Below, in pieces: positions 26,801 through 28,409 of a DNA stretch of 64,000 bases. Location of the stretch: the NCBI GenBank assembly GCA_019057475.1, contig DXJO01000028.1, positions 34,271 through 98,270 on the forward strand, given 5' to 3'. Position 1 is the stretch's first letter; each line of letters starts with the position of its first letter. Position numbers and translations under genes: made by a program. Below the pieces are notes generated by a model. The model was not told the DNA's origin. It saw nothing but the letters and a program-made list of their open reading frames with translations, and searched no databases. This DNA is from Candidatus Thorarchaeota archaeon (GTDB lineage Archaea > Asgardarchaeota > Thorarchaeia > Thorarchaeales > Thorarchaeaceae).

Positions 26801-27088
26801 CTACTGCCACTGATATGTGCAGATATCCATGTCTTCGGGCAACGCTGCCCGTGAAGTGAAGATGAGGTGTTGGTTTGCATCATTCGCAAACCATGCATGA
26901 AGCCTGGTATCTGAGAGAACCTCCAACATCTTTCCTCTCTCGTTGAAATCAAGACCCATGACCTTCAGCAGGCTTGTTAGGCTTACCAGTCTGTCGACAT
27001 TCTTGTTGATGGCGGCAAGGATTCGAACCTTTGAGCCCGTTTCCATTTGAAGAATCTCTGTATCCCGAAGCACCGCCTTAATCCTCAT
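26801..27088 (-). CDS. Small hypothetical protein
   Basis: Protein-like composition, located between padR and cysS. Confidence 0.6.
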   Translation of the reverse strand: MRIKAVLRDTEILQMETGSKVRILAAINKNVDRLVSLTSLLKVMGLDFNERGKMLEVLSDTRLHAWFANDANQHLIFTSRAALPEDMDICTYQWQ

Positions 27089-27147: not shown

Positions 27148-27516
27148 TCAACACTTCTTACAATCATCGATGCGCACAATGATGACCTTACATTCTTCAG
27201 CGATGTCGCCGAAAGCTTGGTAGAAGTATCTCGCGGCTTCATCGCGCCCTTGTTGGCCAACATCAGTTAGGCGATAGATTACCTGATTGCCTTCCTTGAC
27301 GCCCTCGATCAGTCCCCGTTCCTTCAAGTCCTTTAGCGCCGGATATATCGTACCTGGTGTGGGTTTGGAGCCGCGCCTCTTTGATATCTTTTCAGCAATT
27401 TGCTGTCCATTTAAGCGCTCCTTACCTAACTCCCAAAGTATCTGGAATGTAAGAAATCCCCTCATGTCACAACAGTCTGGCGGACAGCACCTACCTGACT
27501 TCTCGTCGCTTGACAT
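27148..27516 (-). CDS. PadR-family regulator with terminal Cys clusters
   Basis: MRGFL...IL..L, PTPGTIYPALK.L...GLI, Y.LT..G; N-terminal CCPPDCC, C-terminal CKKC; start at ATG 27516. Confidence 0.85.
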   Translation of the reverse strand: MSSDEKSGRCCPPDCCDMRGFLTFQILWELGKERLNGQQIAEKISKRRGSKPTPGTIYPALKDLKERGLIEGVKEGNQVIYRLTDVGQQGRDEAARYFYQAFGDIAEECKVIIVRIDDCKKC

Positions 27517-27522
27517 GTTGAG

Positions 27523-27585
27523 TATTGGACATCCAATATACTTAAATGTATATGTCTGATGCCCAATATTGGTCATCCAATATTG
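27523..27585. promoter_or_regulatory. Two palindromic operators between padR and arsM
   Basis: TATTGGA-CA-TCCAATA (27523-27538) and CAATATTGG-TCAT-CCAATATTG (27564-27585), flanking AT-rich TATA-like sequence. Confidence 0.8.
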
Positions 27586-27611
27586 ACTATCGAATGAATG
27601 CGGTGAAGGAA

Positions 27612-28409
27612 TTGAGCGATACGAAACGAATCAGCGATATGACAGACGATGAGATTAAGGACGAAGTGAAAAAGGCTTACTCAAAAGTTGCTCAGCGAAC
27701 CGGGACGAAATGCTGTGACCAGGAAGACAATCCCTCTAGGGAGTCCACATCCAGCTGCTGCAATCCCTCTCCAAGTGATATGAAACGACTTGTTCTGTCA
27801 TTTGGGTATTCTGTTGACGGGCTTCCTGCGTCAGCGACTGAGTCGTATGCAGGCTGCGGCAACCCTGTCGCTTTGGCAAGCTTACGAGAGGGTGAGGTTG
27901 TTCTGGACTTGGGGAGTGGAGCAGGCTTAGATGTGTTTGAAGCCGCCAAGAGGGTCGGCGAAACCGGTCGGGTTATTGGTGTTGACATGACACAGGAAAT
28001 GCTTCAGAAAGCTGAGGAGAATGCCGTTAAGCTTGGGGTGACGAATGTAGAATTCCGGAAGGGTGACATCGAAAACCTGCCTATCGAAGATGATTCGATT
28101 GACATCATCATCAGTAATTGTGTCATCAACCTCGCCCCGGACAAGTCCAAGGTGTTTCGCGAAGCATTCAGAGTACTCAAACCTGGCGGCCGCGTGATGA
28201 TATCGGATATTGTCCTGCATGGTCCGCTGCCTAAGGATATACGCGACGAGGTCATCACCTACACTGGCTGCCTTGGTGGGGCTATTCCGGAGGAGAAGTA
28301 TCTGCAATTGATGCGCGATGCAGGCTTTGAGAGAGTAGAAGTGGTTGAGAAGTTTGAAATCAATCTCGGTTCCAGTGCAAGGATTTCAGGGTACAAGCCC
28401 AAAGAGTGA
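27612..28409 (+). CDS. arsM: Arsenite S-adenosylmethionine methyltransferase
   Basis: [38 protein letters not shown]-terminal CC pairs; start TTG 27612 or ATG 27594. Confidence 0.9.

Follow-up and report, generated by a model that had tools for sequence, protein, structure and literature searches.

A cysteine-tagged PadR-type protein encoded divergently from arsM is a candidate metalloid-responsive repressor in Thorarchaeota and other archaea

The As(III)-responsive repressors of the ArsR/SmtB family, such as R773 ArsR, AfArsR and CgArsR1, are small, dimeric winged-helix proteins that act as autorepressors of ars genes. Their As(III) sites consist of three thiolates, often including a vicinal cysteine pair near one end of the chain, and such sites have evolved on several occasions at varying positions in the protein. 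Vicinal cysteine pairs make up the sites of AfArsR, CgArsR1 and ArsD, but pairs of this kind are also ligands of Hg(II), Cd(II) and Cu(I), can hold Fe-S clusters and can be oxidised to disulfides. Copper repressors of the CopY type are likewise winged-helix proteins, and they sense their metal by means of a terminal cysteine cluster. We know of no description of how arsM, the gene for arsenite methyltransferase, is controlled in Asgard archaea or Bathyarchaeia.

There is one described arsenic repressor of the PadR type, called PadRars, and it is reportedly released by As(III) and Sb(III) in a cysteine-dependent manner. This protein of Azospirillum halopraeferens Au 4 is presented as a PadR-type As(III)/Sb(III) repressor (Zhang, Wu, Tang, Chen, Rosen and Zhao 2022, Environ Microbiol 24:5139, PMID 35880613; cited in PMC11566425 and PMC12817078), and its operator is quoted as CCTTGA-N11-TCAAGG (PMC12817078). 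An earlier note on the DNA considered here had proposed a possibly undescribed PadR-type metalloid sensor. Since PadRars is already published, such a sensor is not undescribed as a kind, and only the archaeal branch presented below appears to be so. Judged by operator, target and host as described, PadRars differs from that branch in being bacterial, in being associated with a different ars operon and not with arsM, and in the operator quoted for it, which is unlike the archaeal ATYGG-N4-CCAAT. Literature searches that paired PadR with arsM, or with the arsenic genes of Asgard archaea, turned up no paper on the padR-arsM module.

The window, by which we mean the whole 64-kb stretch of DNA that was analysed, comes from a Candidatus Thorarchaeota archaeon and carries a padR-type gene on the minus strand (27148-27516 including the stop codon, with its ATG at 27516). 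According to the list of open reading frames and the sequence, the 122 amino acid product begins with MSSDEKSGRCCPPDCC and ends with DDCKKC. Its best match is the Pfam PadR family (PF03551, E 5.9e-11), where it scores 42.7 bits and exceeds the gathering cut-off of 27. Membership in the ArsR/SmtB or CopY/BlaI families was considered and rejected, as all models of these kinds fall below their cut-offs. Specifically, Penicillinase_R (PF03965, CopY/BlaI) reaches 20.5 bits against a cut-off of 22.6 and the ArsR-type metalloregulator model NF033788 reaches 22.5 bits against 55, while PF01022 (HTH_5) is absent from the Pfam matches of the protein; the TrmB model likewise gives only a sub-threshold match. 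The protein resembles ArsR/SmtB members as a small, putative winged-helix regulator of an ars gene, but it belongs to another Pfam family.

The AF2 model of the monomer (pLDDT 82.8) has a single-domain PadR fold with helices at residues 19-30, 37-48 and 54-66, a wing at residues 70-83 and one long C-terminal helix spanning residues 85-119. Residues 1-17 have pLDDT values below 50 and are disordered, as are the last three residues. The best fold matches found with Foldseek are TA0346 (3elk), RosR, Rv3488 and LmrR-type proteins, wherein TA0346 and Halobacterium RosR (6ez1, 6qfd) are the best matches in both sequence and fold, sharing the single-domain winged helix and the long dimerisation helix at 23-29% identity over the fold alignment. 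RosR is tied to oxidative stress and TA0346 has no known function. There are 575 relatives of the window protein among the roughly 5.8 billion proteins searched, the named ones mainly from Thorarchaeota, and its nearest look-alikes are all archaeal. The closest public locus (L001) encodes a protein with 98% identity, and the related loci used for comparison throughout this work come from the genomes of relatives and are not independent samples. There is also a 95 amino acid open reading frame without a family match at 26801-27088 on the minus strand, between padR and cysS. We rejected it as a part of the module, given that it is kept only in five close Thorarchaeota relatives.

A search of plasmids for a bacterial relative resembling PadRars yielded only PadR proteins encoded next to chrA. 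These closest bacterial plasmid genes (L185 3983-4330, L186 3977-4282 and L187 3977-4282) show 28-30% identity to the window protein and lie beside chrA chromate pumps, sometimes inside ars islands. Like the CopY-type repressors, they are comparable to the archaeal protein in that they are winged-helix proteins that repress genes for resistance to metals or oxyanions. However, the two products that were translated (L185 and L187) contain no cysteine.

The archaeal protein, in contrast, carries two cysteine motifs that can be read directly from the sequence. An N-terminal tag, CCPPDCC, occupies residues 10-16 (codons at 27469-27489, minus strand) and is located in the disordered N-terminal segment just ahead of helix 1, whereas a C-terminal CKKC forms residues 119-122 (codons at 27151-27162, minus strand). 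Both cysteine pairs of the tag, together with the DMRG that joins it to helix 1, are invariant in an alignment of 29 members. A tag of the form C(C)-P-x(1-6)-CC is present in 80 of 80 metagenome loci and in 72 of 80 genome loci, where the eight loci lacking a tag call reflect protein starts mis-set by the start-calling script and do not demonstrate loss of the tag. Indeed, the extended form C(C)-P-x(1-6)-CC-DMRG occurs in all loci whose protein start is correctly read.

The second set of cysteines is far less uniform. A CxC or CxxC tail is found on the tagged PadR of 41 of the 80 genome loci and is the form seen in Thorarchaeota. The loci of Bathyarchaeia, Methanomethylicota and Methanosarcinaceae have CxYFC within helix 4 in place of the tail, and those of Hermodarchaeota have no second set. 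Across the loci compared, then, only the N-terminal tag is universal; the C-terminal CKKC is a trait of the Thorarchaeota clade, and the other cysteines vary by clade. The expectation that the cysteine clusters would be conserved therefore holds for the tag and fails for the CKKC motif. A profile search of 1.84 billion representatives also reveals a wider radiation of small PadR proteins (for example P0125, P0126, P0130 and P0132) that share (C)CDMRG ahead of helix 1. These have one to nine N-terminal cysteines, many also have CxYFC in helix 4, and they are archaeal wherever the taxon is known.

The gene divergent from padR is arsM, which encodes a short-form arsenite S-adenosylmethionine methyltransferase of 265 amino acids and begins with a TTG codon (27612-28409, plus strand). 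Its product scores 316 bits against the arsenite methyltransferase model NF008823, whose cut-off is 263, and it aligns with the solved ArsM structures 5evj and 4fr0 (E 5e-38) such that the catalytic-core cysteines within GCGNP, SNCVINL and TGCLGG are matched. A Shine-Dalgarno-like GGTGA lies at 27602-27606 on the plus strand, and a motif of this kind precedes arsM in 38 of 47 related loci. The codon homologous to the TTG at 27612 serves as a start codon in 46 of these 47. The core observation of the earlier note, a PadR-fold protein with CCPPDCC and CKKC that is divergent from arsM, is confirmed.

There are hundreds of other archaeal loci with the padR-arsM module besides that of this Thorarchaeote. 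Among the 80 genome loci, whose annotated taxa are Thor-, Hermod- and Bathyarchaeota, Methanomethylicota and Methanosarcinaceae, arsM is located directly upstream of and divergent from the tagged padR in 78, and at least four archaeal phyla are represented. Of 201 Asgard genomes sampled evenly, 117 contain ArsM and 56 the regulator, and arsM adjoins the regulator at 52 of the 57 places where it occurs. The exceptions include one contig end, one genome without arsM and two genomes in which the partner is a nitroreductase-family gene. Within the taxonomic family of the window, the tagged padR is found in 34 of 43 sampled genomes, wherein 33 have both genes, one has padR only, none has arsM only and nine have neither. 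A second Asgard family, which its loci identify as Hermodarchaeota, has the tagged padR in 18 of 19 genomes. A sample of 251 Thermoproteota genomes contains 13 places with the regulator, 11 of them adjoining arsM.

The pairing also extends to distant members of the family. In a metagenome scan of clades that are at most 50% identical to the window protein, with tags such as CCRAPECC, CCPPPACC and CPPECC, arsM adjoins padR in 69 of 80 loci; of the remaining 11, ten have too little upstream sequence and one has arsM 880 bp away. Pairwise identities of the PadR and ArsM proteins are correlated (r = 0.81), a value reached by none of 999 Mantel permutations. A few members sit without arsM (L016/G037, L065 and G430). 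Comparison of these genomes indicates that the pairing recurs across phyla and deep divergence, even given the kinship of the genomes, and that it is no local chance.

The two genes are separated by a spacer of 95 bp (27517-27611), whose limits agree with those given in the earlier note, as does the presence of two copies of TATTGG-N4-CCAATA, one near each gene. The first candidate operator, O1 (TATTGGACATCCAATA, 27523-27538), is an exact copy of the palindrome whose 14-bp core ends 7 nucleotides before the padR ATG. The second, O2 (TATTGGTCATCCAATA, 27567-27582), is also exact and is located 29 nucleotides before the arsM start, its centre 44 bp from that of O1. Between them are an A+T-rich TATA region (TACTTAAATGTATAT, 27539-27553), to which archaeal promoter geometry assigns a promoter role, and a degenerate middle box (27554-27567) that keeps only its right half, CCAAT, at a position where many relatives have a full box. 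A weak fourth box with two mismatches (ATTGACTATCGAAT, 27582-27595) abuts O2; an equivalent site occurs in L001 and L002, and its significance is uncertain.

These palindromes are not expected by chance. The two exact copies in the spacer are the only ones in the window, and two matches were obtained in none of 100 shuffles, for which the mean was 0.07. The 14-bp core occurs ten times in the whole 3.34-Mb genome versus once for a reversed control. All eight copies outside the padR-arsM spacer lie within long open reading frames, and the search of this genome for the core found no intergenic copies beyond the spacer. As judged by this search, padR and arsM appear to be the sole targets in the genome from which the window derives.

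The arrangement of the boxes is conserved as well. About 60 of the 78 loci linked to arsM have a homologous box 7-8 nucleotides ahead of padR, as taken from a tblastn-anchored listing. The padR start was mis-set by the script in 29 loci, so that distances rest on this listing and on the 51 loci with a cleanly called start, among which the spacing is 7-8 nucleotides in 46 and a TATA-like element is found just upstream in 47. The family consensus of the box is ATYGG-N4-CCAAT, and the copy nearest to padR is directly adjoined on its upstream side by a conserved TTTAAAT(G)T. Two or more boxes are present within 200 nucleotides upstream of padR in 71 of 80 loci, and the commonest spacing of the outermost boxes is 44 bp. 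The most common layout has three boxes (14 + 30 = 44 bp), and in many relatives the middle box abuts the one proximal to arsM. The window retains the 44-bp layout with its middle box decayed to a half-site. On the arsM side of the A+T-rich segment, the family order is one or two boxes, often abutting, followed by the Shine-Dalgarno-like motif and arsM. The location of a box between the TATA element and the padR start, taken with archaeal promoter geometry, implies that the padR transcript is leaderless, and the TATA region at 27539-27553 is predicted to serve both divergent promoters.

In six Thorarchaeota loci (L011, L025, L033, L040, L048 and L055), the spacer between operator and arsM is 360-490 bp long and contains two kinds of mini-ORFs in the direction of arsM. 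One kind encodes about 45 amino acids with a conserved F-S/T-C-Q-x2-3-C, and the other encodes about 55 amino acids that resemble the N-terminus of ArsM and include a CC pair. The products, which have no counterpart in the window, may be metalloid-handling peptides.

Genes other than arsM are sometimes associated with the operator or the regulator. In Hermodarchaeota loci (L057 and L061) the operator motif is also found ahead of a nitroreductase-family gene with a conserved cysteine pair, and in one Hermodarchaeota locus it precedes a second methyltransferase. In another Asgard family (L081), a PadR with the tag CCPEKPDCC is divergent from this kind of nitroreductase-family gene across the operator, and padR is followed by a gene for an ArsN2-like GNAT acetyltransferase, whose score of 115 bits against NF040501 is below the cut-off of 125. 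These nitroreductase-family and ArsN2-like genes (L057 5925-6542, L061 7405-8010, L081 3338-3916 and L081 4372-4812) give a second line of association with arsenic besides arsM. Across the loci examined, the neighbours of padR included no identified metal pump, mer gene or redox gene.

The genome that contains the window also encodes an ACR3-like arsenite pump outside the window (C42:217433-218392 in G000), which scores 281.7 bits against a cut-off of 282.8. This gene follows a gene for a 404 amino acid protein. Neither an operator box nor a nearby regulator was found for it, and thus the tagged PadR does not control the whole arsenic response. The same genome has 15 HTH_5 genes, none of them near arsM. 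The proposal that a PadR protein stands at arsM in the place expected of ArsR, and would act there through two operators, is strongly supported by comparative genomics: tag, linkage and palindrome are conserved together in other archaeal phyla, which is the co-occurrence that the earlier note had suggested looking for.

We consider it likely that the tagged PadR is an autorepressor of the arsM module that responds to trivalent metalloids, acting via boxes that flank a shared TATA region and using its N-terminal tag as the sensor. We infer from the features described above that the protein represses, where the promoters lie, which ligand is sensed and by what allosteric path. The regulator would be a small, single-domain winged-helix repressor of the dimer-forming PadR kind that binds ATYGG-N4-CCAAT palindromes. 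One box would be situated between the TATA element and the start of the leaderless padR transcript, and the remaining one or more between that element and the transcription start of arsM. Since the boxes flank the shared TATA region, a bound dimer would block recruitment of the polymerase at both divergent promoters, and padR would thereby repress itself along with arsM. The thiolates of the flexible CC-P-x-CC tag beside helix 1 would chelate As(III), or perhaps MAs(III) or Sb(III), with a contribution in Thorarchaeota that may come from the C-terminal CxxC. Binding of the metalloid would then lower the affinity for DNA, and arsM would be induced. As the AF2 monomer leaves the tag disordered, it provides no structural support for a metal site. 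On the strength of gene context and conserved cysteines, the tagged PadR probably senses As(III) or another metalloid.

One alternative, which we regard as unlikely, is that the protein represses arsM and itself while its tag senses another soft metal (Hg, Cd, Cu or Zn) or else thiol oxidation and disulfide stress, in which case arsM would be one of the outputs of a broader response to thiol stress. Mercury-handling proteins typically have CC pairs, and CopY-type copper sensors typically have cysteine motifs at the C-terminus. Moreover, the closest solved archaeal fold relatives include the oxidative-stress regulator RosR, another near fold match, Rv3488, is a PadR protein solved with bound ligands, and the sub-threshold scores for Penicillinase_R and the ArsR-type model weakly recall metal-responsive families. 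However, the neighbour is nearly always arsM, and the exceptions include the locus with ArsN2-like and nitroreductase-family genes. The lack of pump, mer and redox neighbours in the loci examined, and of further intergenic boxes in the genome, also argues against this alternative.

Less probable still is a purely structural role for the cysteines, perhaps in a Zn or Fe-S site that steadies the dimer, where the true effector is an organic ligand that occupies the pore of the dimer, as in LmrR and PadR proteins, or where there is no effector whatsoever. Most of the PadR proteins characterised so far have organic ligands, the fold matches include LmrR-type structures, and the variation of the second cysteine set by clade could reflect different structural solutions. 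Nevertheless, the tag lies in a disordered tail outside the fold, which would be unusual for a structural site, and the strict coupling to arsM across clades that are at most 50% identical argues for a link to the substrate of ArsM. In addition, other Asgard arsM genes are accompanied by unrelated regulators with vicinal cysteines, which points to thiols as the common sensing element. Finally, the notion that the juxtaposition of padR and arsM and the palindromes are coincidental, such that PadR regulates unrelated genes, is effectively refuted by the conserved linkage and the box statistics and is very improbable.

These other regulators come from 20 arsM neighbourhoods in Asgard families that lack the tagged PadR, in which some of the neighbouring genes were profiled. 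No ArsR-type gene is evident beside arsM in these roughly 20 neighbourhoods, as far as the profiled neighbours indicate. In several of them, the gene immediately ahead of arsM on its strand encodes an AbrB/MazE-like protein of about 96 amino acids (up to about 125 as called) with C..CC near the N-terminus and a CC pair further on (L084 2211-2501, L090 2185-2475, L091 3368-3667, L092 2214-2558, L096 3349-3642, L097 2264-2563, L099 3462-3839 and L101 3440-3730). A match to PF04014 was obtained for the two members that were profiled, and the rest are alike by eye. This protein is a candidate for a further, apparently undescribed, type of arsenic-sensing regulator.

Yet other Asgard arsM genes are flanked by a gene for a MarR-family protein with ACCCS or an HxlR-family protein with FCCS (L086 3449-3928, L093 4595-5095, L103 1960-2439 and L094 4248-4667), where one example of each family assignment was confirmed with Pfam. 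This diversity suggests that vicinal-thiol sensors have been recruited to arsM repeatedly, on differing scaffolds. There are also two loci (L095 1883-2278 and L102 1930-2316) in which a PadR protein without the N-terminal cysteine tag is encoded divergently from an ArsM-like methyltransferase. The latter has LGSGNP in place of LGCGNP and is therefore missing one catalytic cysteine.

It is quite conceivable, and we offer this tentatively, that the archaeal protein is an independent invention and not an orthologue of PadRars. In that case, a disordered tag of four cysteines would have been placed on an archaeal PadR scaffold, which would be one of at least four unrelated vicinal-cysteine scaffolds (PadR, AbrB/MazE-like, MarR and HxlR) recruited to arsM in Asgard archaea.

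By methylating arsenic, the archaea of anaerobic sediments influence how mobile and how toxic it is, and the padR-arsM module offers a compact candidate sensor for this process, consisting of a protein of 122 amino acids and a predicted operator of 16 bp that are found in at least three other archaeal phyla besides Asgard archaea. If the tagged PadR senses metalloids as proposed, PadR-type arsenic sensing, which has been described in a single bacterium, would extend to archaea, where the cysteine layout, the operator and the target are different, and the protein could be of use as a new part for biosensors. Taken with the cysteine-bearing AbrB-, MarR- and HxlR-type neighbours of arsM, it points to a repeated origin of thiol-tagged regulators on whichever scaffold is available. 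Should independent invention prove to be the true reading, arsM would represent a natural experiment on how metalloid sensors evolve convergently.
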